64,000 nucleotides of DNA from Trichosphaerium sp. ATCC 40318. Taxonomy: Eukaryota > Protista > Tubulinea. Position 1 is the stretch's first letter. Each line of letters starts with the position of its first letter. The notes below the pieces were generated by a model. It saw nothing but the letters and a program-made list of their open reading frames with translations, made no database searches and was not told the origin of the DNA. A program made the translations under genes and the position numbers. Shown in pieces: positions 2,859-37,741 of this stretch. The stretch spans positions 2,500 through 66,499 of the forward strand of contig JALMLS010000131.1 of NCBI GenBank assembly GCA_038496445.1, in the 5' to 3' direction.

Positions 2859-5800
2859 CTATAAAACATACGGAGGACTTGCTGAGCGGTCTCGGCTTGT
2901 ACTTCTGCTACGTGATTTGCTCTCATCCTTATCTCGCCTATCTTTGCTCTTACTACGACTTCTACTTCTTCGCCTACTAGAACGATCGCGATACGACCTG
3001 TCATATCTACCGTGAAAAAGAAAAATAAGTCTACTGTTCACAAAAAAAAAGGTCTAAGAAAAGTATGCCACCCTACCTGTCTCTACCACCTCTTCGCCTA
3101 TCACCACCACGCTCGCGGTCATAACCTCTATCTGAACGATAATCACGGCCCCTTCTTCCGCCATCACGGTACCCTCCACGACCTCTACTGCGATAACCAC
3201 CGCCATAGTAGTCTCTAGAACCTTCATACCCTCCTTCGCCACCTTCCATGCCACCTTGGCCATAATAGTAACCTAGAAATTTATTAAGGGGTAAAAAACG
3301 CAAGCTACTAAAGAAAGCACATCTAACGTGGACCAAAGGTACGTTGTCACGTGAGTTCTTTAAAAAATAAATCGTACTGTAGTATTTTTTCCAATATTCT
3401 TCAATGTCTTCTTGTGAGTATTGCTGTTGTTGCTGTCTAGCTCTCTTTAACTCAGCAGGTAGACCGTCATATCCTCCTTCACGTGGGCGCTTTCTAGAGT
3501 TCTGAAAAACCCGTCAAATAACGTAACACTCAACCAAGTAAAACGACTTACATGCTTCCCGTCTCCACCTTGCTTAAATCCACCATCATTATTATACTTT
3601 TTAAAGTCCCCACCGTTTGGTGGACCATTACCATCGTGCCCAGGCTTCTTTATTAAAGACCTTGGGAATTTATCAGAGAAGTTATCTGGAGGCGGTCCTC
3701 CTTGGTTAAAGTGTTGAGGCCTGCCACCGCCACCGCCACCATCATTATCACCCTAAAGATAGGGTGAGTAAACGTTAGTTTAGATTGTATTGTTCGTACA
3801 TAGCTTCCGCCCTCTCCAGGTCTATTGGAGTATGTATTGTTCATAGAAGGCTTGAATCCCTTAATTTGTAGATTAGAAAAAAAAGAGCCAAGCACGTGTT
3901 TCACTTACGTTAGATGTACCAATAGGAACAACAGATTCACCAGTTTCCCAATTAAATCGCTCTGTAGCTCCAAATCCGCGAGCCCATCCAACCTTCATTG
4001 GACGACCTTCAAGAAGCATATCATGGGTAGCCTATGATTCTATTAAACCAAAAAACCAAACTACAACCCAGGACCCTCCAAGATGTCTCAAAAACAGAAC
4101 AACAAAAAAAATCACGTGAAGAGGAGAAAGAAAAAAAATAGACTCAGTTCAGACTCCTTTCATTGTGTACCTCTCTAGCTTTTTCAGCACCTGCTCGATC
4201 ATAGAAATTACAGAAAGAAATGTGTTTGTGCGCCAAGTACTAAAATTGAGTTTATAAACACAATACCGTACACTACAATGTTTCTTATTAAGAAACAAAC
4301 AAATACAAACCTTTACAGATCTTATAGCACCGTGTTGACAAAATATAGCAAACAACATTTCTTGGCTTACAGTAGGTGCCAGATTTCCAACAAATAATGT
4401 AGTACTTAACACTAAAAAGGAGATAATGTTAGTACAGTCTTTGTAACAATAAAAAAAATCAATGTGGCCTACCTTTACGATATCCTGGAGCTACCTGCCA
4501 ACTCCCATCACTCTCGTCTTTTGGTGGAGGTGGTAGAGAGTTCTGCTAAAGATAGTTGTAAGCACTTTTGGTCACCAAACTATTAATGTATGTGGCGTAC
4601 TTGTTCTTGCTCTTGTTGATTAAATAATTGTTGTGGAGGTACAAGCATAGCTTTGTTTGACCTATTATAATGTAAGACGTAAAGAATAAAAGCTTAGGTA
4701 ACGTGGTTTTACTGTTTAACATGTCTAGCATTTAAACTTAGTACTTACGCTTGTGAAGCAATAGCTACAGCCTCTTTTGTTCTTCTCTCGGCAGCACTCT
4801 GCTGCTCTTGTCGTCTACGGTTTTCCTCTTCTTCTCGTAGTCTCTGTTGTTCTGCTATTCTACTAGCATCATCTGTTTCCTCATCATAATCGAACAGTGG
4901 GTTTGGCACCTTATTTACTGCAACAGGTTATTAGTGATCAGCGTGAGTTAAGAACTACGCTCTTATATACGAACCTTGTGGTTGTTGAATGGTCTGAATA
5001 GGTTGTGCACTTCCAGGGGGCGTTGAAGGCCGAGGAGGTGTGCGAGAACCTAAGAAATGGTAAGATATCATTCAATTGAAAGAGCAGGCTTACTGTTCAA
5101 GTTTTGGTGTCCGTTCCATCCAGCATTGTTCTGTTGGTATCCTTGTGGCGGTGGGTAGTTAGGCGGAGGTTGTTGATATTGTCTACCAAAGTCTCCTATA
5201 TCCAACAATCAATACAGACCAAAGAAAGTAGAAACTACAAAATAGATACTTACCTTGTTGATTGTAACCTTGTTGATACGAGTTTGGTGCATTTCCACCC
5301 ATATTATTCTGTTGGTATCCTCCTTGATTAGGTGGATAACCACCTTGATTAGGCCACTGGTTTTGTTGTATTTGCTGTGGTGGCATACCACCTCCTTGAA
5401 AATTGTTTGTTGGAGGTGCTTGTTGAGGTAACTGTACACCTGCATAACAGGTAAGCGATGCATTCTACTGAAACAATACCAACAAAAAGTAAAAAAACTG
5501 GGTTTGACTCCGCAAACCGGCTGAGTATGGGTACGAGCTCAGTTCTGCTATCCTCCCGCTTACCACGATGGAAGCTTTTCCCTGCTCTGTTTCCAGCCTG
5601 AGGCGGTTTACCTCTCATTATCAACCAGGATCTCTCCACCTCCGCGGTGAAACCCCTGTTGGTCGATGGCACGAGAGGACAGAACATCAACACCCGAGGA
5701 TCCCACCTCACATCCGGTCACGTAGTCATTCCCAGTCTTTAAATGGCCTACTGCTAGTAGTTACAGGTATTCGCTACACACCCGCCGATAGAGAAATGCA

Positions 5801-6893: not shown

Positions 6894-9399
6894 TAATGAT
6901 GTTGGTTTAAGAATAAACTGCAAATTCATATTTATTTGGAAGTGGTCAAAAGTTATTTTTATTTATTCATATAATCATTTGTGTTCATCTTGGAGCAAAT
7001 GGTTACGACACACAGAGTACTTACAAACACGAGTAGGAGAGAGTCTGTTTCTATCATTAGTAATTAAGCGACTAGCCTGTGAAAAGCTTCTTTCAGTCAT
7101 TGCTTGAGAGGCTGGAATCGCTAAATATTTCTGAGCCAAAGATGCTAAGATTGGATACTTTTCTTTGTTTGTTCTCCACCATCTAAGCTCTTCGCCATCA
7201 TTAGTGGTTTTTATCGGTGGTTCTACCTTGTATCTTTCTAGTTCTTTGCTTGTATCAAGCGGAGTAGTAGGGGATGGTGCACTACTAAACAGAAGTAAGT
7301 AAACATTGAAACAAAAAAAAGTAAAACAGAAAAAAGACCAATACGTGAAGAATTGTCTCGCTTCTCCTGCTTCTGAAACTCCTCCTCTAGTGCTCACTGC
7401 ACTAGGTACTTCACCTTCAATACCCTTATTGTACAGTTAGTACGCATTATGTAAATTATTGTACTGTAGGCATGTTCTCATCTCTTGATACAGCTACAAG
7501 TTCATTAAATTCGGCTTCTAATATTTCCCAAGCTTCATCCTCGTCTCCATCAGTGAGGTGGTTGCAGCCCTTAAAGCGCGGATCAAGGACTGTTGCTAAG
7601 AGGGTAACAACAGGGAGCTCATCTCATATGAGACGTATGGCATTGAGATAGTTTGTAGCCACATTTTTGGTTTGTATTTGCATTTCATCAAGATTTTCAT
7701 TTTCGGCAATTTCTTCCACTACACAAGTCAGTAAAAAACAATAATGAAGCTAAACAACACATACACGGATGAATCATCTCTTGGAGAAGCTTTTCTATCT
7801 TTTCTAAGGCCACCAACACCCATGATTGCGTTGTGTACTTCTCTGCTTCGAGAATTTCAATAGCATAAACTGTTGGTTGAAACAAAAGAATCATGTTCTC
7901 AATAAAACTCCATTTCTCAAAGGAAAACTCAGGTACGTATGGCTACAAACAAAGTAAATATTTACACGTGCACAAAAAAACCAGTACATACCCTAAATCT
8001 ACTATCACATACTAGTCGGTAGTTTGTAAGCATTCGTCTCATTTCGTGAGCTTTTTTCAACATTGTAATTGTTGATGAGAAGCGTGTACAAGTATCACGT
8101 GGCAGTTTTTTGTATTGGTCACTGCAAAACGCTTTCCAGGCGCGTCTAAACGGATCTGAGCAGCTACACCTCGCAATAAACACTCTTAAGGGCTTGAGAA
8201 TGCTTTCTTCAATTTCTGGGATTAATGCTTTACGCATTGCGTTATTCAAGATGTGACAGAGGCAGCGAAGGTCAGTAACCATTCTAGGGTACCACCAATT
8301 AATTTTATACAAGAACAATGGTAGTTAAACGTACTCAGAGGTATATTTCGCCACTTGGGCGAGTGTGTCTCTGCGAAGCTTTCTTGAAGAAAAGTAAGAA
8401 CAATAAATAATAAAAAAAACCCACAAAAAAAACTAGTCGTACCCAATAGTGAATTTAACTGAGGCCAATTCGCCTCCATCTGTTACACCAGCAACTGGTA
8501 AAACACCATCACCTAGCCACGCCACGTTTGAGCCATCCCACTCTCCACAAAGTACGTCAGCTACAAGTGAACCAATAGTTACCGCTGCCAAAAAAAGTAA
8601 GCAAAAAAAAAGTTTAAACAAAGTTGTTTCGTGCCTTTGTGGTCTTCTTCACAAGGCACCACACCTACCAACTTACGACACAATACATAGTCATCGGATA
8701 TCCAATGCATTGATATGCCAGCGTAATATTCTTTGGAAACTTTACTTTTCCAAAGATCGACTGCAAAGGTTGGTGACTTCGCTGTTTGAGTTATCAGCTT
8801 AGCTTCATTTATTGTTTTGTCGCTGAGTGCATCAGCCCGTAAAGTGATCTTGTTTCTCCCTGGTAGAATGAACCCAGGTACAGCATAATTAAACAATAGT
8901 TTAAAGTACCGTTTTGATACGAGGTGAAAAGGAAGATTGTGAGCAACAAAACAAATAGCCAACAAATCTATCAATTTCTAGCGAACAATTAGAAATTGCA
9001 AAAAACCACTTGTTATTACCTCTTGTTCCCCCGGTAATAAAGGCCGAATGGTTCTGGACACATACTTGTCCATAGGACCTGTTTTATCTTCTCCGTCAGC
9101 AAAAGAGTCTGTTTTGGAGTCGTAGCCATGTTTGGTGCGTAAGTGAGTTAACAGGTTGCTTGTTGATGTTCCTTTAGGTCGAGGCACAAAACAACTACAA
9201 CGTTTACACTGAAAGCCTCCATCAACATGTACAAAGTGTTTATACACTGGTGATCGCAGAGTACGAATACTACAAACCACTGTGTTTTTGGGCTCAGCCA
9301 TCTCGATGAATTGTGTAAATTCAAAAAGTCAATTCATAGTCCAATTTTTTTTGGTGTATTCAAATTTATTCTTTATTTATTCTTAAACCAACATCATTA
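6894..9399 (-). mobile_element. Autonomous-type hAT DNA transposon, 2506 bp
   Basis: Perfect 24-bp TIRs TAATGATGTTGGTTTAAGAATAAA (6894-6917 and 9376-9399), perfect 8-bp TSD GTTTCAAC (6886-6893 and 9400-9407), and an internal transposase gene. Confidence 0.95.
6975..9301 (-). CDS. hAT transposase (BED finger, DDE core, C-terminal dimerisation domain), multi-exon; 3' end approximate
   Basis: BED finger SPVYKHF..CKRC..GTSTSNLLTHLRTKH; catalytic AVDLW, VTDGG and TERSFS; CLCH (CxxH); LDPRFK; WWRTNKEKYPILASLAQKYLAIPAS. Confidence 0.9.
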
Positions 9400-13400: not shown

Positions 13401-13584
13401 AATGTTAGAACCAGTTTGATGAATAAAACGCTTCCGGTGCAAACTATAGTTTTGAAGCACAAAATCTAAGTTGAGGTACCTTAGGAACAGTGCAACCACC
13501 AAGAGAAGTTTACCAAATACGGCAACTAAACGAGCAAATATGGTTAAAACCTGAAAAGTAGTTCATTTATTGTACTTGCATCCA

Positions 13585-14229
13585 ATGAAGCTCTTAATAG
13601 CCCTTGTATCTCTTATAGTGTTAGTACACGCACGCTTGTGTACGGTACCCGTTCCTTGCAAGGCTATGACCGTAGGAAGAGACGGGTACCTGTGGAGGAC
13701 TCAGTACTTATACAACTGCGCTCATTGCGAAAGTGCAAACGTCAAGTGCAAGAACTCTGCCCTCGTTCCTATTCGCAACGGAAAAACGACAATCTACAGG
13801 CGCGAATGCGTGGTAATGGGAATAAAGTACAATCAGCGACTTCTGGCCGCACCAAAAACAGATTATGCAGATGTTGATTTTAGCAGGCGTGTATCATGCC
13901 TAAAAGCGTCTAACATTGCATCGAGGCAGATAAAGAACGATCTAAGGCTTTTCGGTCCTCACAAAGATAAAATGCTTTGTTTCAACCCGTTCAACGAGGA
14001 AGTACTCCCTTCTTTGGTAGATAGCAAATACAATACAGATAGATTGGTATTAAATATTATGGTTAACAGGAACACTTGCATAAGAAATTACTATCCATTA
14101 GATGGTGATCTTGTTGTCTGTAATGTTCCTGGAAGAACAACCTCTACACCTAACCATAAAAAGTCTCGAGGTAGTTCCTATAGAACTAATCACTTTAGAA
14201 GTGTTTTTCGGAACATGAGATTCAAATAA
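13585..14229 (+). CDS. Intronless secreted Cys-rich basic protein of unknown function
   Basis: Single ORF with signal peptide MKLLIALVSLIVLVHA, about 10 Cys and an Arg/Lys-rich C-terminus. Confidence 0.7.
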   Translation: MKLLIALVSLIVLVHARLCTVPVPCKAMTVGRDGYLWRTQYLYNCAHCESANVKCKNSALVPIRNGKTTIYRRECVVMGIKYNQRLLAAPKTDYADVDFSRRVSCLKASNIASRQIKNDLRLFGPHKDKMLCFNPFNEEVLPSLVDSKYNTDRLVLNIMVNRNTCIRNYYPLDGDLVVCNVPGRTTSTPNHKKSRGSSYRTNHFRSVFRNMRFK

Positions 14230-15473: not shown

Positions 15474-17081
15474 TCATTGATAACGGAGCTTATGTTTTAC
15501 ATTTTGTTTCTTTTTTTGAAGTTTTTATCATTCTTGTTTTTCGTCGGAGTGTGGTTCCATTTTTGTCTCACCTCTGCATACTATTGACTCATTAACATTG
15601 TATAAGTATTTATATGTATGTTACTTACCCATGCTTTCTGTTCATTACCGAGTGTAGACTCACGTTTCATAAAAGAGTACATTTCTTCTAAAAATGAAGA
15701 ATCTTTTTCAACCAATAAGTTACAATAAGTTTCAATCCTTTCTCTATCATATAGCCTTTCTTTTGGTATCCAAGCATGTCCAAAACGCGCACCAAGTACG
15801 CTACCACAAATAGCAGCAACAGTATCAGTGTCATACCTACACAATTGGTTGGAAAAGACAAATAAACCCGAAAAAAATGATGAAAAAGCTTAAAATGTAC
15901 CCCAAAAGAACTATTTCTCTGAGTATTTCTTGTGGTTCAATATCATCTAATAATGCCATAATAACACCATGGCATCCGCCTAGAATAGCGAAGCCTTGAT
16001 TACAATGACATACTGTAAACCTTGAGTATTTCTTTCCATTTTCAGACAAGAATTTCCTAATTGCCGATCTGTCACTCATCAACTTCGGTTTATTGAATAC
16101 AGCAGCCAAAGTATCACTCACTAATATCCATCCATTAGCAACAAAAGCATACAATCAAAGCAAATAGTAAGCATTAACTTACCTATATGAGCATCTTTTC
16201 TATCAACCTCCCAAGCCTTCTTTTCATCAGACACCCAACGTTTTTCTTCTTCACGAACAACACCTGAAATCTTAGTTCGAATTTCAGCTACACTATCTCC
16301 ATTTACAAAGCAATAAACAGCGTAAGCTGTTGCTATATATAAACGTAAGTATGTATCAATACATTAGAGCTCTAATAGATGGTACCAAAAGCAATTGAAG
16401 CAGCAGTAATAGATCCATGTGTCATCAATGTAGATTCATAACAAACAGTCTTTAACAAATCGAGGTTATCAGCATAAACAGCGCCTATAGGTCCAATACG
16501 CATAGCAGCACCCATTCCACTTGAATCACTACCAGATTTCTCAGGAGGTGATTTACGTTTTAAAGCCTTGACAGCCTGTGAGAAGTTTCTACCAAATCCT
16601 CTCCAAGCACTATTATTGCAACAAAATTAGGCCAATGTTTTACACTAGTTCACGTGCTTTGTACGCATTCCCTCGGTGAGCCACTTAGTCCATGCTGCAG
16701 TAGACCATTCTGGTTGCCTCATGCAACAGTTTATAAGCGCCATAGCTTGTTGAGTGTCGTCTGAGTGGTAACTTTAATAAAAGTGTCAATTCATTAGGTG
16801 CATCGGCCTGTACGTACCCAAGAGGTCTCATTTTTTTAAAAAATCGGCTTTTTATGTTCTTTGAGTACGTTTGAGCTTTTTCAAAGTCAAAAGCCTCTGG
16901 AAACTCTCTGTACTCTCCAAATACGTGTTTAATATTGTTTTGACGCCATCCTTCCATAGGACAGCCGAAAACATCTGCGTGTTGTTATTTTTATGTTAAA
17001 AGTCTTTATAATACCTCCCCAAGCTAATCCCCATAGGCTGCCTGCAATTTTATCTTCTTTAGAAACCTGAGGAGCTGCCAT
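15474..17081 (-). CDS. ADP-ribosylglycohydrolase (DraG/ARH3 family)
   Basis: GSLWGLAWGDVFGCPMEG, SDDTQQ, SGNGAAMRIGPIG, MTHG and DTDTVAAICGSVLGARFG..WIP. Confidence 0.92.
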
Positions 17082-17649
17082 TGTAACGACTTTCAAATAA
17101 TAGCCTCTTAGCAAGACAATCGTTCACAGAACTCATACAGGAAATATCTACGATATTTATCGCTTTAGTACTACTCTTTTCTTTGGACTTGCCAACGAAG
17201 AATGCTCACTAAATGTACTGGCCGTGCATACACTTACGGTGTTACACGTGCTTTTTTTCGTTGAAATTAGAATTGCAAAATACACAGTTTACTACTACTA
17301 TTGCATTCACTGTCCATCTCCGTTTGCAAAAAAAACAAAGTGTATAAACTAGATATATTTTATCTCACAAGCATTGCAGGGAATTAGCCTAGAATAGTTA
17401 CATCTCGTCTCCTTTGTGGACAACAACTACTTGTCGCACAAGCGTTATCAAAAAAGATAGACAAGCTATCAACGGAACTCTTGTAGAAGTCAACATAACC
17501 TCAAAACAATTGATAGACTCATGTGAATTTAGCATAACCTTCCTTAGAGTCCGTATATAAAACACATACATACAACAGTAATCTTTGTTTTATATTGGTT
17601 TTTTTACATTTGCGGTTTTTGTTGGTTGTTTTCTTGGGTTTTTTTTTGA

Positions 17650-19102
17650 TTAAATATCTACAGCAAGAAACAAAAATAGTACAATAAAGAGTATAGATAC
17701 AACAAAAAACATTCCTAGTATAATAACTGGTAAATACTCATCGCATACATCATCATCAACACTTTTTCCTCTTTTTTGTGCGCGTATAATTGCTGCAGCA
17801 GGTAACTCTCCAAGCTAATAAAAAACGTCAAAAAAAAAGAAAAGAAGAATTGGAAAAAAGTTTTTTTGTACAACCAAAATCCGTCAATGCATACGTATTC
17901 ATTAAAAGCTTGTGGAGGTGCAATGGCACGATCATTATGACTCAAACCTCTCCAATCATAATTAGAAGCTGCCAGATCATTTGCAATACGTGCAACTAAA
18001 GGAATAGTATCCCTTGTAGGTTGTGTTCCTCCTGAAACACAATCCAAAAATAACTCGATTCTAAACACGTGCATTTTTAGTTGATTGAATTTAAACTAAA
18101 TTATCATCCTTAGTAATGAAACGTACTTGTCTTCCATCCATCTCCAATATTGTTTAGATCTATATACACGCCAAACTTTAACTGTTTCAGACGAAGCAAA
18201 AAAGCAAACAAAATCACAAATGTTGACGTCCAAAACTTCTAAACAAGATCTTGTTAGCATGCCTATTAATGCGTATCAATTTACTACTAACCCATTTGCC
18301 TATATGAAAATAAGTTATAGGAACATAAATAAAAAGGTTTGAAGCGAAAGAATTAACACCAGTCCGAGCTATGAACACAAACGTGTCTGGTGATTTCTGC
18401 AATAATTTTTCATTGAAAATCTTGTATTTTTTTTTGATTGAAGAAAACTCAATGACAACGCACAGCTGCATCTGTGCCATGTACTCTGGAGGTATCACAT
18501 TCCATTGACGCCTTAGAGGACACTTTATTTCTACAATAGCTCCGTTGTAGTTTGCCTCAGGATGTTGAGAAACAAAACCATCAGGTGTTGCACCTATTTC
18601 TTCGTTATTAGTTGATATTATCTATTTAAAACGTTTCCACAGTGACAAACAATGATGCGTTAATGAGTACGTTACCTAATTGGTTTGCCCAGCGTCCTTC
18701 ATGCCAACAGAAATCACCTTCACGTATATTTACTTTTAGTTTGTACGCATACCTATAACGACGTTCATATTACTCAATTCTCGTACTTCTGTACTCACCA
18801 TGCGCGTACGAGGCCTTCATATTTATGGCCGTGCTGTATTGCTTCACTTGTTACTTTATCACGCGTTACTTTTCCTACTTTAACCTCCCACAAGCTGTAG
18901 TAGTTAAAACAAGAAGCTGTTAATTACACTTACCTCTTTGGTGACGCGTATAGAGATAAACCGACGGCAGCGGCTACTTCTGATGCAGTTAGGTGGTTTC
19001 CAGGACTTAATACAATCAGTAAACGAAACAGTTACGCGTTTTGTACCTACTATGTATTCTAGCCCATTCCTCAGATGAGGCGCTTAGTCCCTTACGTGCC
19101 AT
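17650..19102 (-). CDS. YqaJ-like viral recombinase / lambda-exonuclease family nuclease with a C-terminal transmembrane helix; multi-exon including an 8-nt microexon (18292-18299)
   Basis: SEEW..HLTASEVAAAVG, HGHKYE, LGATPDG, VEIKCP, YMAQMQLQMEVLD..CDFV, VWRVYRSKQYW. The last exon ends YLPVIILGMFFVVSILFIVLFLFLAVDI*. Confidence 0.88.
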
Positions 19103-19197
19103 TGCTACTACGTGGTATTGCTTCGAATAAGTGATGGGTGACCGAGAATTCGCGCGTTGACTTTTTCTATGCTCAGAAATGTCTAAAGTCATGTAAT

Positions 19198-22100
19198 ATG
19201 GCAACCACTGATACAAAAACACGCGTACACTCGCATCTAGAGTTCTTACTGAACCCTGAGTTGCTTGATAAGCATGTACGTCAAACTTTTTTTTTTCAAA
19301 CGTTTAAATTGGTTAATTGTACTTATTTTTAATAGATTGAGCGACTGAAAGACGGCACAGAAAAGTTTCCAACGTGTATTGATTTAATCAAAGTATTTTT
19401 GAAAGAAGAGAATAAATGTATCGCAAAACAGAATTATCAGCGTTCTTTTGCATTTGCAAAGCTTGCAGCCACTGTACAAAACTTATGTAGGAAAATACAC
19501 TAAAAGCTTTAAAATAGGTACCAACAAGCTATGGAATGGATCTAGAGTCCATAGAGAAACAAATACCAAGCAAATTCCAACGACAACTTCTTGGTGACAT
19601 TGTACATTCGTTTGCGGATCAACCGTACGTCAAACCATACTTTCAGGCGTAATTACGGTAGTCTGCATTCAATTCAACTACATCGGTGGGTCGTGAGACG
19701 CGTTTTAAACCAAGACGATGCCAAGACAATCTGGCCACCTAAGGTACACTAAAACCGCAATGGCTTTTTGTTAATAACGTTCTTTAACGAAACCCTGATT
19801 TTGAACTTGAAACGTTTTAAACTGACGGATTTGAAGGGAGAACCAACAGGTAAACAGCTACCTCTTAAGAACACTATAGATGAACTTGAAGAATGGGTCA
19901 ACAAAGACGAGAAGGTAAGAAAACAAGCTTTTAGCTTGTTCGCTTGCAACATTTTTTTAAACAATCGGATTCTTTAGAAAACAGGCAATGCTCTGAATGT
20001 GTTAGTGGATGTATTGATAGAACTTGGTGAATACTTTCTAGTAAAGCCATCACCTGATCCTGAGAAGGCACTCACTTTCTTGAAAAAGTGCAAGAGTGTG
20101 ATATCAAGTGAAAAGTAAGTTCTTTTTTGCATTTGACTTTTTTTTTGTGCTGACTTGTCATTGAAGTGCTGATAAAATATTACGACTTGATGCTATGATT
20201 TTTGCTTGTGAGAGTGTTAGTAACCCTGATATGGATCTTGGAGATGAGTATGCGCTTGTTATTGATAATACCATCGAGGAATTGAAAACAAGCAACATGC
20301 ATACACTTGAATCTTTGCAAATCAAATTATTTCAAACGCTTCTTGATGATAACCTTGTTGGTAAACTCAATATTCCGTATAGAACATCTCTAGTAGATGT
20401 ACCAACACTTGAATCTATTAAAATGGATGTGGCTGTTGCTAATATCATACATGCAACGCTAAGAAACGGTGAGAAAATTACTTTTTTTGTTTTGCTTTTT
20501 CTTTAAGAAAACCTTTGATTGCAGAATATTTATCTTGTATAGAAACTGAGCGCTATTATGGTGAGATCATTGACCTTGGCCTATTTGGCTTTCATAAGCT
20601 TTGTAAGGCGTGTGTTGAAACACTACAGCGAGTAAAGAGTGTAAAAGATTCGAAATACACATATGATCAGCTTGTCCCATTGTTGAGGTACTTGATGAAC
20701 TGACCTACTATTTACACCTTTGAATCATACTTAAAATTATGTAGGACACTCCTAAGTAGTGTTTGCAAAGCATATGATGTTCCAGACATGTGGGAAGCGC
20801 TCATTCGAGGTACTTTTTTTTTTGATTAGAAATCAAATGTTTCAAATGTCTTGGGCTCCATTATGTCTTTTTAACTAAATACGTAATTAGTTGGTGTCCC
20901 TCTATCACTGGATGAAGATAAAATATCTCATGCTAAGTCTAAGGAGATACAAGATATGTTTAAAAAGGTTCAATGACTTTTAGTGCTTTCTTCGTCTATA
21001 TGACTTCTAACTCAGTGCTAAGGACAATAACGTGAAGAAGAGTTCTTTGGCGTCTTCTAATCATGTAAGATAGTTGTATTTTGTGGATGCAGTTCTAATA
21101 CTTGTTGCTTTCTTTTAGCTGTTGAACATGTTAAAAACTGATGACCCAGAACAAATTAGTAGTAGCTTTGATGCTATTGTAGCGGAAAACAAAGGACTTA
21201 ATGTGTTCTTACAACATGTAAAGAAGGTACCAATGAAGTAATGTATTTATGTTGTGACTAATACCCACTTTTTTTAAAAGGATGCTTCAGGTGTTAAAAC
21301 AAAACTTCTAACACAACGTGCAAGATCCTTTTTGATGCAGGTTAGTAATGGAAAAAATTTAGTTGGGTTTTCTTTGTTTTCTTTCTTGCTTCTTTGGTTC
21401 TAATGTATTGTTACTTTAGAGTAAATATCAAGAAGCAGAGAATGTGTATACCTATTTAAAGGATGAAGGAAACTCAGAATGCGCTTGGGGTCGTGTTGTG
21501 TTGGCTATAATGAAGTCTAAAGGTCAAAATATTTCAGACTTAATTACCAATGTACTTAACCAAGTTGTTGGGAATCAAGGTATCTTCCCACCTGATCTAT
21601 TTTACCTTGTACGTTTATTTATACAATTGCATTATTTCTTACTAATTTTAATCGTACAGGAGGAAGTATATGGCTTTCTCTTGAATAACAGCATGGTTAA
21701 CGAGATGACTATGCTTTCTGATGGTATGCAAAATGCTGTCCAGAAAGCTTCCTTTGTAGTCCCTTTGGCAGGTACACAGTGTTCTATCTTTGTCACCTCA
21801 GTCACTTACTATTAAGTATAGGTAAAATCACACAACTTGGTAAGCTTTGTGTTGCTATTGGAAGGATGGTTGATTTAGAGAAAGATTACATTCAAAATTC
21901 AGGTTTGTTTAAAAAAAAAGTTTCACTCCAAAAGTTTGATGTCTTTATTCGTTTGTAGATAAGATGACAGATAGTAATGATGATCCAGCCGAAGCTAATG
22001 TAAAGAGTATATCTAAAGTATTATCAGATTTTCTTAGTATAGTTCTTGCATCGCCGCAAAGTAATGGTGCTTTCGATGTACGTTGTTTCCTCTTTTTTTC

Positions 22101-32637: not shown

Positions 32638-33804
32638 ATGGCTGTAAAACAACAATCGCTAAAATACGAACTTAAATCACTTCAGGATCTACCACCGGAG
32701 ATACTGGCGCATGTGGGAAGGTATTTAAGAAGAAACCAGCGAATCGAAGCAACAACAGTTTGTCACTTGTTTAACAACGTCATTCGCCACAATGTTGGCT
32801 TTTGTCGTATCAATATACAACGCTCAGCAGATCTTCATACCCTAGAAGGCAGTCCTTTGCTAAAGAACACCGAAATAAGCAATCTTAACGGCCACGTGCT
32901 ACGTCCAAAAGATATGATTTGTATACGTGGCGTTCACACTTTCTATACATTTGAGGCACGTGATGGAACTATTCTAGCATTGTTAGGAGGAGAAGACAAA
33001 ATTCACAGTATTTCAATGCCCTATACACACATAACAGATGCTTCATTGAAGGCTCTCAAGTCTGTTCACACAATTGATATTAGTGGGTGTAGGAATATTA
33101 CTGTTGATGGAATAGAAGCGCTTAAAGACGTACATAAGATTACTCTCAGTCCAAAAGCTGAATGGCTTGAACACCTCGGTAATGTACACTCGGTTGTTTT
33201 GTATAAAGCCAAAGATCTACATAGTCTCGAAGCACTATGTAATACCAAACACATAGTGATATATAACAGTGATACTATTACAGATAACAGTTTAGTTCAG
33301 TTGAGTAAACTTGAGCGTCTTGACATTCAACATGTTCCAAATATTTCTGGATCATGTTTCAAGCACTTGGTCAACCTTAAGCACCTCAAACTTTCTGGTC
33401 TTAGTAATATAACGGACGAACATATGGTTCACTTGGTAAATATTCATCACCTAGAGCTTGATAGAGGATCAAAGATAACAGACGCAGGTTTGAAACAATT
33501 GACTAATCTGAGGCATCTTACGTCATCAAATAAGCTTATTACAGATGAAGGGTTGAAGCACTTGAAGAAGTTAGAGCGTCTCAAGCTCCCAATTGATCAT
33601 TTAACCAAACGCATCTGTACTTGCAACATAACAGCTAATTGCCTGACATACCTGACATCGCTTGTGTACCTTGAAACTCATAACTCACTTAACATATCCA
33701 AACGCAAAAATCAATCACAGCATGACACTGCCAAGGACTTGGGTATTGTTTGGAACATTAAAGGTAAATTTTTGATCCGAACCAAACAAAAACATTACAC
33801 TTAG
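32638..33804 (+). CDS. Intronless F-box + leucine-rich-repeat protein
   Basis: LQDLPPEILAHV F-box start; ITDxGLxxLxxL/VHTIDI repeats. Confidence 0.85.
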   Translation: MAVKQQSLKYELKSLQDLPPEILAHVGRYLRRNQRIEATTVCHLFNNVIRHNVGFCRINIQRSADLHTLEGSPLLKNTEISNLNGHVLRPKDMICIRGVHTFYTFEARDGTILALLGGEDKIHSISMPYTHITDASLKALKSVHTIDISGCRNITVDGIEALKDVHKITLSPKAEWLEHLGNVHSVVLYKAKDLHSLEALCNTKHIVIYNSDTITDNSLVQLSKLERLDIQHVPNISGSCFKHLVNLKHLKLSGLSNITDEHMVHLVNIHHLELDRGSKITDAGLKQLTNLRHLTSSNKLITDEGLKHLKKLERLKLPIDHLTKRICTCNITANCLTYLTSLVYLETHNSLNISKRKNQSQHDTAKDLGIVWNIKGKFLIRTKQKHYT

Positions 33805-33976: not shown

Positions 33977-34735
33977 TCATGACCACTGCCTTACACCATT
34001 TGAATACATGTACACAGATTTTAACCCTCCATCGTAATACCATAACTTGCACTCTCCTTCTAGCTTGTTATATTTGTAGAACTTCTGCTCATGCTGTTGA
34101 CCATTTGAGTGCCAACTCTTATACGTGCCTTCATACTTCCCATTCATATACTTACATTCCCTTTGCAAGTGACCGTTTTGATGCCAAGTTTTGAGTTCTC
34201 CGTCTGGTTTGCCATTTCTGAAATTGCTCTTTTCTCTGAGTACACCAGTGTTGTACCAGCTAAGAAACTCTCCTTCAAGTTTACTATTGACATATCGACA
34301 AAGAATCCGCAATTGACCAGTAGCGTACCACTTCTTGACTTCTCCTTCGACTAAACCATTGATATAGTGAAGACGCATAGCCAAGCTACTGTTAGGATGA
34401 CTACTCTTGTCATACCATTCTATGTATTCTCCTTCTCGTTTATCATTAACATAGTGACATGTATTATACAAATGACCACTTACAAACCACTCTTTGTACT
34501 CTCCTTCTTGTTTATCTTTAACGTAATAACTCTGTGTATGTAGATTACCATTGGGGTACCATTTTCTACACAACCCATCACGTTTACCATGTGCCCAATG
34601 ACACACTTGACTGTACCCTGAAATTGTTTGTCCCCATTTTCCATGTTTTTTTAGCTCGCTATCAAACCTTGTTGTCATTGCTGTTTGTCTCGATAACAAT
34701 GGCCATATTGCGTACAACGCATAGTCTAAATCCAT
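33977..34735 (-). CDS. Intronless MORN-variant (YwqK-like) repeat protein
   Basis: About 8 repeats of roughly 24 aa with consensus NGKxEGExKxWYxNGxL. Confidence 0.85.
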   Translation of the reverse strand: MDLDYALYAIWPLLSRQTAMTTRFDSELKKHGKWGQTISGYSQVCHWAHGKRDGLCRKWYPNGNLHTQSYYVKDKQEGEYKEWFVSGHLYNTCHYVNDKREGEYIEWYDKSSHPNSSLAMRLHYINGLVEGEVKKWYATGQLRILCRYVNSKLEGEFLSWYNTGVLREKSNFRNGKPDGELKTWHQNGHLQRECKYMNGKYEGTYKSWHSNGQQHEQKFYKYNKLEGECKLWYYDGGLKSVYMYSNGVRQWS

Positions 34736-35579
34736 TATATCGAGCTGTATCTCCAGAGGAAGATGTAAGAGAAATTTACAACGAGCATATGACTCGCTTA
34801 TCTGGTATGGTTAGCAACTGGTAGCGTAATTAAGAGGCGCACCTCTTGTTTAGATGTCATCAAGCGATAACCGCTTAATAATTACTCGTCGAACTCCTAA
34901 CAACGTGATTTCTCTCAGTACAACGCGTGGTTACAAGTAAGAACGCGATTGAACATAACTGTGAAGACTGACATTGACTTTAAATTCCCTCTTTTCATCA
35001 CGTGGCCGAGCTGTGAAGTGCTACAGACACTATCTTTGTCTTTTTATGATATTCTCTAAGTATTCTCTAGAGGTTGACCTTAAGTCTGGAAAGGAAATGA
35101 TTGCCTCTTCCCTCTTAGTATGTGGTACAACGAGCGTAACTTTAAGCCGAAAATTCCAAAGTTGTTAAGCTATGTTCCACTGTGTGCCACTGTGGAGCAA
35201 AGATGAAAATTTATCATAAGTATGCTTATAATGCACGTGGCTCTATTACTGCTTTCGTTTATAACACTAAGTTTATGTCAAATCAATATACAGGTACCAA
35301 AGTGTCGAAGCGTGCTTTTGTACTTACACGTTTGAGATTTTTGCCTCCTTTGATTGTACAGGTACAGTGGCGCATAATATCACCAGAGTATATGACACTT
35401 GCTATCCTCCGGGCGCTAAAACGCTATTGGCAAAAGCAACGCGCTATGTGGGATGCAGGGAAGGTGTTTTTGGGACACAAAAGGTAAATAATCACGTGGT
35501 TGTTAGTTTAACATATTTTGCTTAGATTGTCTACAGAGAATACAGCACGACGATATGTGATACGTTTGATAGGCAATAC

Positions 35580-36370: not shown

Positions 36371-37741
36371 ATGGAGCAGTACAATATTAGTAAGCATCTT
36401 GAAGACTCAAACGAAGACAAAAACAAGGATTTGGAATCAACAACAATATTATCGCTTCCAGTTGAAATAATCGTTCATATTCTCAACCAAGGTAAATTTA
36501 CACTGCGTTCTGCACAAACATGCCATTTTATACACGATATTGTCCATAAATACATTGGATATGGGTGTATAGCAGTCTCCCACGTCAGCGAACTATCGCT
36601 ACTTGCTGGTACACCTTTATTAAAGAATACACGTGTATCTTTTAGAACAAAAGATATTGAAGATTGTCACTTATATTCACTTGTGGGTGTACATTCAATC
36701 GACCTACATGACTGCAAGTTAATAACAGATGATGGGATCAAAGCATTGGCTGGTGTTCATAGAATTGATTTAACCCGTACAAGAGTAACAGATGAAGGGA
36801 TCAAGGCATTAGCTGGTGTACACACAATTATTTTATCAGGCACAAATGTTATGTGCGAAGGGGTAAAGGCATTGGCTGGTGTACACACAATTGTTTTGAA
36901 CAATACAAGAATATCAGACAAATGTTTGAAGGCATTAAAAGGTGTGCACACTATTAAACTACAGGAGTGCAGACGTATTACCAATGATGGGATAAGAGCA
37001 TTGATTAGTAACAACACTGATTTATGTAAAACAACAGCATCAGATGAACAGTTTAAGGCCGTGACAGGCGTGCACACAATTGAACTAAGGGGTACTAAGG
37101 TTACAGATGGAGGAGCCAAGTTGTTGGTTGGCATTCATCAAGTTGGTTTAGCATTAACTACTATAACGGATGAAGGTTTGAAAGCATTGGCAGGTGTACA
37201 CACAATTTTTATATGGGGTTGTAGACATATTACAGACAATGGAATTAAGGCATTGGCAGGTGTTCATGAAATTGATTTATCTTATGTATCAGTAACAGAT
37301 GAAGGTTTGAAGGCATTGGCAGGCGTACACACAATTGAATTAGGTTGGTGTAGCCAAATTACAGACAAGGGGATTAAAGCATTGGCAGGTGTACACAAAA
37401 TCGGGTTGTGCTTCACAAAAGTTACAGATGAAGGGATCAAGGCATTAATCGGAGTTCACACTATTGATTTATCCGGTACAAGTGTTACAGATGAAGGGAT
37501 AAAGTCCAAGGCATTGGCTGGTATACATACAATTGTTTTGAGAAACACAGAAGTCACAGACAAATGTTTGAAGGCCTTGACACGTGCGCATACTATAAAA
37601 TTAACTAAGTGCAAACAAATTACGGATACTGGGGTCAAGATATTGACTGACGTGCACACAATTGATTTATCTGGTACAAGTGTTACAGGTGAAGGGATCA
37701 AGGCACTGGTTGGTGTACACGAAATTGTTTGGAGGTACTAG
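36371..37741 (+). CDS. Intronless F-box + LRR protein with highly regular 22-25 aa repeats; paralog of 32638-33804
   Basis: ILSLPVEIIVHIL F-box; about 15 repeats of GVHTIDLSGTSVTDEGIKALA; shares the G(T/S)PLLKNT linker with the first F-box gene. Confidence 0.88.
   Translation: MEQYNISKHLEDSNEDKNKDLESTTILSLPVEIIVHILNQGKFTLRSAQTCHFIHDIVHKYIGYGCIAVSHVSELSLLAGTPLLKNTRVSFRTKDIEDCHLYSLVGVHSIDLHDCKLITDDGIKALAGVHRIDLTRTRVTDEGIKALAGVHTIILSGTNVMCEGVKALAGVHTIVLNNTRISDKCLKALKGVHTIKLQECRRITNDGIRALISNNTDLCKTTASDEQFKAVTGVHTIELRGTKVTDGGAKLLVGIHQVGLALTTITDEGLKALAGVHTIFIWGCRHITDNGIKALAGVHEIDLSYVSVTDEGLKALAGVHTIELGWCSQITDKGIKALAGVHKIGLCFTKVTDEGIKALIGVHTIDLSGTSVTDEGIKSKALAGIHTIVLRNTEVTDKCLKALTRAHTIKLTKCKQITDTGVKILTDVHTIDLSGTSVTGEGIKALVGVHEIVWRY

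Follow-up and report, generated by a model that had tools for sequence, protein, structure and literature searches.

The closest described relatives of the nuclease reported here are LHK-Exo (structures 3syy and 3sz4) and lambda exonuclease (1avq, 3slp, 3sm4 and 6m9k), with which it has its fold and catalytic motifs in common. As described in passages of PMC3239189, Arg12 of LHK-Exo, four residues past Trp8, binds the 5′ phosphate, as Arg28 does in lambda exonuclease; loss of Arg12/Arg28 in these enzymes lowers rate and processivity and abolishes 5′-phosphate discrimination. YqaJ proteins of giant viruses (mimivirus R354, PDB 5yet; those of medusavirus and pithovirus) are of the same family, and the history of YqaJ in giant viruses is itself unclear, according to a passage of PMC3493329. 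YqaJ is already listed in eukaryotes (among the entries of PMC3424549) and occurs in ISL2EU transposons (a passage of PMC4482050). Soluble eukaryotic forms, i.e., those of plants, of other protists and of the second open reading frame of ISL2EU, have the domain in common with the nuclease studied here, but carry no C-terminal tail in the rows examined.

Mammalian TREX1 has a DEDDh fold, unrelated to YqaJ. Passages of PMC8517477 describe this enzyme (DNase III) as a single nuclease domain with a C-terminal ER anchor, facing the cytosol, and this layout alone is common to the two proteins: TREX1 is of the opposite polarity (3′ to 5′) and acts upstream of cGAS-STING.

Here we analyze the window, i.e., the whole stretch of 64,000 nt, in which a sequence-only reading had proposed a viral-type nuclease gene domesticated to encode a tail-anchored membrane protein. 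The window gene differs from those of LHK-Exo and lambda exonuclease in having eight introns, an extension of about 45 residues and a C-terminal hydrophobic helix, and its product appears to have a histidine at the position of Arg12/Arg28.

Results

The nuclease gene and its transcripts

The YqaJ-type nuclease gene lies on the minus strand at 19102-17650, where a spliced open reading frame of nine exons (882 nt) encodes 293 residues. All eight introns are of the GT..AG type and measure 39-164 nt each. Exon 1 (19102-19047) holds the start codon at 19102 and the motif-I residues Trp13 and His17, exon 2 (19005-18934) the T-x-S motif (aa 25-27), and exon 3 (18894-18799) the G-x3-E motif with Glu69, together with a weak YqaJ match (E 0.16). 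Exon 4 (18752-18676), like exons 1 and 2, is supported by spliced contigs. The PD and ExK motifs (Asp105, Glu122 and Lys124) are in exon 5 (18593-18464), as are Tyr138 and Gln141; taken by itself, this exon matches Pfam PF09588 (E 2.3e-4, 21.9 bits on 42 aa). Exon 6 (18299-18292), a microexon of 8 nt, completes the Gln-rich motif, exon 7 (18238-18127) encodes the final strands and helix of the nuclease core, and exon 8 (18060-17895) encodes a clade-specific extension after the core (aa 184-239). Beyond the last intron (17894-17815, 80 nt), exon 9 (17814-17650) encodes the linker, the predicted tail anchor and the stop. All of these features are on the minus strand.

Contigs of four public runs, from at most two samples and two studies and with no source run on record as RNA, were judged from their own features to be cDNA, because they contain spliced joints and end in what we take to be a template-switch adaptor. 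All eight introns are supported by spliced contigs, and a single 893-nt contig of run X4 bridges all of them. The last intron, which had been placed at about 17815-17894 and in phase 0, was confirmed: it is spliced out in all four runs from the two studies, the junction being exact in X1, X4 and X5 and accompanied in X3 by one synonymous change beside it. The letters of the microexon are found between the two sides of the joint in X3, X4 and X5. Run X2, which belongs to a third study, covers a single inner junction, and runs X6 and X7 yielded no contigs here. One X1 contig extends 15 nt into intron 6 and may represent an unspliced precursor.

Comparison of the contigs with the window revealed six allelic differences, all of them at third positions and synonymous in the spliced frame; the four that lie in the last exon would all alter residues in the frame with the intron retained. 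Junction support and synonymous differences together argue that the last exon is real and is read in the frame first proposed. Retention of the last intron was rejected, being without read support and giving a frame with a hydropathy of only 1.47, and six other downstream acceptors for the last exon were translated and also rejected, none having read support. An upstream in-frame methionine is present; the start codon at 19102 was kept because the cDNA contigs start at about 19124-19128 and the starts of the orthologs coincide with it. Two short database fragments (P0133 and P0134) break off where exon 5 does within the motif, an indication that they come from other species with the intron that follows exon 5.

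Relatives and the nuclease domain

Profile searches returned a small group, with P0135 and partial rows among its members, that scored far above the remaining rows. The 256 profile-positive rows were cut to 237 by length and to 129 by thinning at 70% identity; a quick tree of these 129 gave support of 82 to a group of six. Besides the window protein, the group comprises P0122, the closest full-length relative, with its cluster mates P0003 and P0123; P0005, from Protostelium nocturnum, in which the first motif is missing; P0007, from Arcella intermedia; the partial P0008; and L001, a five-intron gene close to P0122. In a core-only tree, for which 57 rows were hand-picked after the quick tree and cut to the nuclease core with tails excluded, the clade had support of 96/89 under a mixture model and 97/89 without it. 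The window protein was sister to the Arcella ortholog (99/89), and Protostelium branched apart, a placement by which the host is likely an amoebozoan. Sister to the clade (92/82) was P0135, from an ENA contig of 4531 nt, which has a similar extension and ends in a basic and acidic stretch in place of the tail; no close viral match to it was found, and it may represent the form that preceded gain of the tail.

Four loci were recovered in a metagenome scan, three of which (L001-L003) represent one five-intron gene, with intron positions unlike those of the window gene. Inverted repeats of 175 nt tightly flank this ortholog (L002:3346-3520 and 4897-5071, equivalent to L001:38-212 and 1589-1763); they are 94% complementary, and each contains an outward-pointing tRNA-Gly(GCC) gene. 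Such repeats could be the trace of an inversion or of tRNA-mediated relocation of the ortholog gene. There are no tRNA genes in the 64,000-nt window. With the 42-aa exon 5 peptide, one search gave a single match and another gave six, four of which were unrelated long repeat proteins. An Atlas search with P0122 returned generic YqaJ clusters only, and one with its last 114 residues returned none at a value of at least 0.9.

The catalytic motif residues of the window protein are T25/S27, E69, D105, E122, K124, Y138 and Q141, and the last six of these are the majority residues in 117-129 of the 129 rows. The metal-binding motifs are intact, and the protein is a predicted nuclease. Over 240 columns it is 40% identical to P0122 (303 aa; E 6e-61), and it was with this ortholog and with single window exons, in place of the spliced window protein, that profile libraries were scanned. 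P0122 matched PF09588 with 87.8 bits (cut-off 22; E 1e-24) and TIGR03033 with 69.1 (cut-off 68.05). PF09588 was the sole Pfam domain on the orthologs and window exons, which had no DEDDh exonuclease domain. A structure model of P0122 (mean pLDDT 86.6) gave LHK-Exo and lambda exonuclease as the best solved matches (E 2e-10 to 3e-10), with target TM-scores of 0.66-0.73 against 3syy and 3sm4; the same two enzymes were the best solved matches by sequence (E 1e-14). Among predicted viral structures, the best matches were giant-virus and phage YqaJ proteins (E ~2e-13, 21-27% identity). The window protein is, as predicted from these comparisons, a YqaJ/lambda-type nuclease. TREX1 was not among the listed fold matches of the P0122 model and, as there is also no DEDDh domain, the window nuclease is at most an analogue of TREX1.

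These matches also bear on the substrate. An ER-bound nuclease might act on RNA, alone or along with DNA, as do the shut-off alkaline nucleases of herpesviruses, which have the same fold. RNase activity is known for the related PF01771 alkaline exonucleases (as given in PMC3424549), and these came up as weak structural matches (E 0.01-0.04); mRNA is abundant at the ER surface, and the altered 5′-end pocket described below hints at another substrate. However, the protein is far closer to LHK-Exo and lambda exonuclease, both by sequence (E 1e-14) and by fold (E 2e-10), and we consider an RNA substrate improbable.

The 5′-phosphate pocket

The position of the motif-I arginine, four residues past Trp13, is occupied in the window protein by His17. 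Of the 129 non-redundant rows, 18 were without an aligned motif-I Ser/Thr and 30 without the Trp; the 81 that were left have arginine at this position in 65 cases and another residue in 16, five of them histidine, and four of these five are clade members. By this alignment-based count, histidine is found in all four clade members with an N-terminus, and arginine in 65 of the 77 outside rows with an alignable Trp; the assignment of arginine to histidine is by spacing from the Trp rather than by structural overlay, and the loop behind is three to four residues longer. In the amoebal clade the 5′-phosphate-binding arginine thus appears to be replaced by histidine, a change that is new here, although a histidine at the pocket may still bind phosphate. 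Because the arginine, although highly conserved, gives way to another residue in 16 of 81 rows, His17 marks a variant, and membership of the family stands. The remaining pocket residues (T25, S27, T103 and Q141) are retained. The sequence-only reading, in which all motifs were said to be kept, was right about the catalytic and metal-binding motifs but not about the motif-I arginine. Since the pocket arginine appears to be histidine, a relaxed dependence on the 5′ phosphate, with lower speed or processivity, is probable.

The hydrophobic tail

The protein ends in a run of 26 uncharged residues (aa 266-291; 17736-17659 on the minus strand), followed by two residues and the stop. Evidence for a transmembrane helix here is hydropathy rather than a dedicated predictor: the best 19-residue Kyte-Doolittle mean is 3.26, at aa 269-287 and six residues from the end, and this is the highest C-terminal score of the 733 six-frame segments (at least 40 aa) in the window, of which seven attain 2.5. 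A C-terminal hydrophobic helix ending two residues before the stop, as first proposed, is thereby upheld. The linker, described earlier as acidic, is acidic only where it adjoins the helix (the final 15 residues have a net charge of -3); the part that precedes this is basic. By hydropathy there is no N-terminal hydrophobic signal (11-residue maximum 1.27).

Tails were also found in orthologs, with scores of 2.58 in P0122, P0003 and P0123, 2.95 in L001 and 1.85 in Protostelium, each with its end 8-9 residues short of the C-terminus. Among the 129 non-redundant rows, the window protein, L001, P0122 and Protostelium rank highest in C-terminal score, and only one of 123 outside rows reaches 1.8. 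The value for Protostelium is weak, being matched by 57 of the 733 six-frame window segments, and the Arcella ortholog, which its source gives as complete, lacks a hydrophobic tail (0.49). With Arcella untailed and P0008 partial, four of the six clade rows are tailed; because P0122 and L001 are near relatives of each other, this amounts to about three independent lineages. P0122, L001 and Protostelium have the tail in the same place as the window protein; its absence from Arcella speaks in part against the reading first proposed.

Between lineages the tails could not be aligned (3-6 identities in 50-54 columns, and no local alignment), and it is by position only that they point to a single origin. 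The clade-specific extension of about 45 residues between core and linker is conserved, with 11-16 identities in 44-46 columns between aa 194-239 and four orthologs, and has a high-confidence fold in the ortholog model. That model places a helix at 272-295 after a low-confidence linker at 246-272. If the tail were an annotation artefact or a chance read-through without function, tails that do not align and an Arcella ortholog without one would be in order, but this is largely refuted by the junction in all four runs, by last-exon differences that are synonymous in four cases out of four and by the recurrence of tails in other lineages, and we find it scarcely credible. We are highly confident that the tail-anchored YqaJ architecture is real.

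Because there is no N-terminal signal and the sole hydrophobic segment is terminal, the protein would be inserted as a tail-anchored protein. Among mammalian and yeast proteins, low tail charge combined with a hydrophobic helix favors the ER, and positive charge on the tail favors mitochondria and peroxisomes (as stated in passages of PMC5450235). High hydrophobicity and a tail charge of 0 to -1, the latter seen in all four tailed rows, favor the ER over mitochondria or peroxisomes, under a rule that is carried over to amoebae from mammals and yeast and cannot tell the ER apart from later compartments or the nuclear envelope. The continuity of the nuclear envelope with the ER counts against an ER-specific reading.

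The same features weigh on a tail-anchored protein at the outer surface of mitochondria or peroxisomes, where it would handle leaked organellar DNA. The mitochondrial nuclease MGME1 has this fold and is a remote structural match (E 3.5e-4), and the Protostelium helix is merely moderately hydrophobic. The other three helices score 2.6-3.3, however, and none of the four tails is positively charged, as the mitochondrial and peroxisomal tails of the rule are, which makes this location very unlikely.

Long transmembrane helices favor later compartments. The uncharged run of the window protein is long (26 residues) and the linker is predicted to be disordered in P0122, features that would suit a protein moving from the ER to the plasma membrane or the phagosome, where it would guard the cytosolic face of that membrane, or freed by proteolysis of the linker. 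The hydrophobic cores of the orthologs, which are shorter than that of the window protein and rich in phenylalanine, argue against later compartments, and we regard movement or release of this kind as quite improbable. The nuclease domain cannot face the phagosome lumen, because there is no signal peptide.

Origin and neighborhood of the gene

Among the sampled rows there were no viral members of the amoebal clade, nor does the hydrophobic tail occur in the sampled viral rows. The best identities were about 34% or less to named phages, 35% to IMG/VR contigs and 32% to bacterial genomes, and none of 80 IMG/VR open frames, most of them from phage, had a hydrophobic segment scoring above 1.33. 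In the best tree the amoebal clade was not nested among giant-virus-like rows. When the clade and P0135 were constrained with twelve giant-virus-like rows, p-AU was 0.147, and with six plant- and protist-like rows it was 0.224, for groups that were named after the tree was seen and a giant-virus-like label that reflects motifs and one IMG/VR contig. At these values a sister group of either kind, virus-like or eukaryote-like, is not rejected. Domestication from a virus was thus not borne out, with no viral clade member, viral identities of about 35% at most and neither sister group rejected; a viral origin of the gene is possible, and capture, if it happened, predates the split of the Protostelium and Arcella lineages.

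A recent capture from a giant virus was rejected in view of the eight introns, the placement in a clade of its own with Protostelium and Arcella, and the viral identity of 35% or less. A mobile element of the ISL2EU type was also rejected: unlike the ISL2EU form, the window gene has no transposase beside it, and no convincing terminal repeats were found in 16500-20000.

The next gene downstream (15584-17081, also minus strand) is spliced and encodes an ADP-ribosylglycohydrolase (PF03747), a pairing not seen in L001/L002. Upstream, a divergent spliced gene begins at 19217-19477 (plus strand, intron 19276-19335), about 100 nt from the nuclease transcript, and had no Pfam match in the three pieces tried. 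No neighbors are shared between the window gene and L001-L003. Gene neighbors are, in any case, little informative in eukaryotes. Farther away in the window are a hAT-type transposase gene with a BED zinc finger and a C-terminal dimerisation domain (6975-9328, minus strand) and an open reading frame of 224 codons with a hydrophobic start and many cysteines, which has no Pfam match (13555-14229, plus strand). Three long open reading frames without apparent introns (32638-33804, plus strand; 33977-34810, minus strand; 36371-37741, plus strand) stand out in this intron-rich genome; they encode one MORN_2 repeat protein and two proteins with leucine-rich repeats, of which one has a weak F-box match. 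Genes of these kinds are common in giant viruses.

Tree, linker, pocket and neighborhood all bear on a further location, the inner nuclear membrane, where the tail would anchor the nuclease in the service of the cell's own genome, i.e., in resection, repair, meiosis or removal of chromatin bridges or discarded chromatin. ER-inserted proteins with a small soluble part can reach this membrane, and the soluble part here is small, at about 265 aa. The branching of the clade tracks host lineages (Protostelium apart from Arcella), as that of a housekeeping gene would. There is a short basic stretch in the linker of the window protein and the tail-less P0135 ends in a basic cluster, but the stretch is not retained in P0122 or L001. 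End resection for recombination is the known job of the family (as given in PMC3424549); the apparent loss of the pocket arginine nevertheless speaks against fast, processive resection, and the genes next to it, in the window and in L001/L002 alike, included no identified annealase or repair partner. We consider this location unlikely, though a serious alternative.

Discussion

The reading that we prefer is that the gene encodes a predicted ER-anchored, cytosol-facing 5′-to-3′ DNase that clears stray DNA, to which we would assign a probability of about 0.4. The tail would pin the nuclease in the ER, or in endomembranes connected to it, so that the enzyme faces the cytosol. On the basis of family membership the activity would be that of a 5′-to-3′ DNA exonuclease, and linear stray DNA would be trimmed from its 5′ ends. 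The substrate could be cytosolic DNA from digested prey, endosymbionts, viruses, mitochondria or broken nuclei, and the altered pocket would suit the clearing of ragged DNA better than long recombination resection.

By analogy, a TREX1-like role of the window nuclease can be put forward as a hypothesis. In its fullest form, this would be the amoeba's own TREX1: an ER-tethered, cytosol-facing DNase made from a phage-recombination enzyme, with a rewired 5′-end pocket, that destroys DNA of giant viruses, endosymbionts and prey. So extended, the proposal is speculative and on present evidence unlikely, and the same holds for its further element, retention since the split of the major amoebozoan lineages.

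In our search of the literature, largely open access and seen in part, we found neither a membrane-anchored YqaJ nor a YqaJ of an amoebal host described. In a survey of PD-(D/E)XK nucleases, a form of this kind is named neither in the 14 entries on YqaJ architectures nor in six passages of the supplement that deal with transmembrane parts; this covers the text entries, and an example drawn in the architecture figure could be missed. The main text of PMC13294678 contains no occurrence of YqaJ. There is also none in the text and four supplements of a paper on the Acanthamoeba mitochondrial proteome (PMC13632651), to which we give no weight, an ortholog in that organism not being established. What we report is apparently an undescribed subfamily: an expressed, tail-anchored lambda-type nuclease in amoebae, with a changed 5′-end pocket.

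To our knowledge, little is known of how phagotrophic amoebae, which are hosts of giant viruses and of intracellular bacteria, dispose of cytosolic DNA. The gene provides a concrete, expressed candidate for this function, in which a membrane tail is combined with a changed 5′-phosphate pocket. If the enzyme is located at the nuclear envelope, a widely used enzyme family would still gain a membrane-bound member not described before. If it is cytosolic DNA that the enzyme clears, the layout of TREX1 would have been invented independently on another fold and with the opposite polarity. Should the amoebal-TREX1 proposal itself be true, the main hosts of giant viruses would possess a cell-autonomous enzyme of defense or clearance, convergent on the mammalian design.
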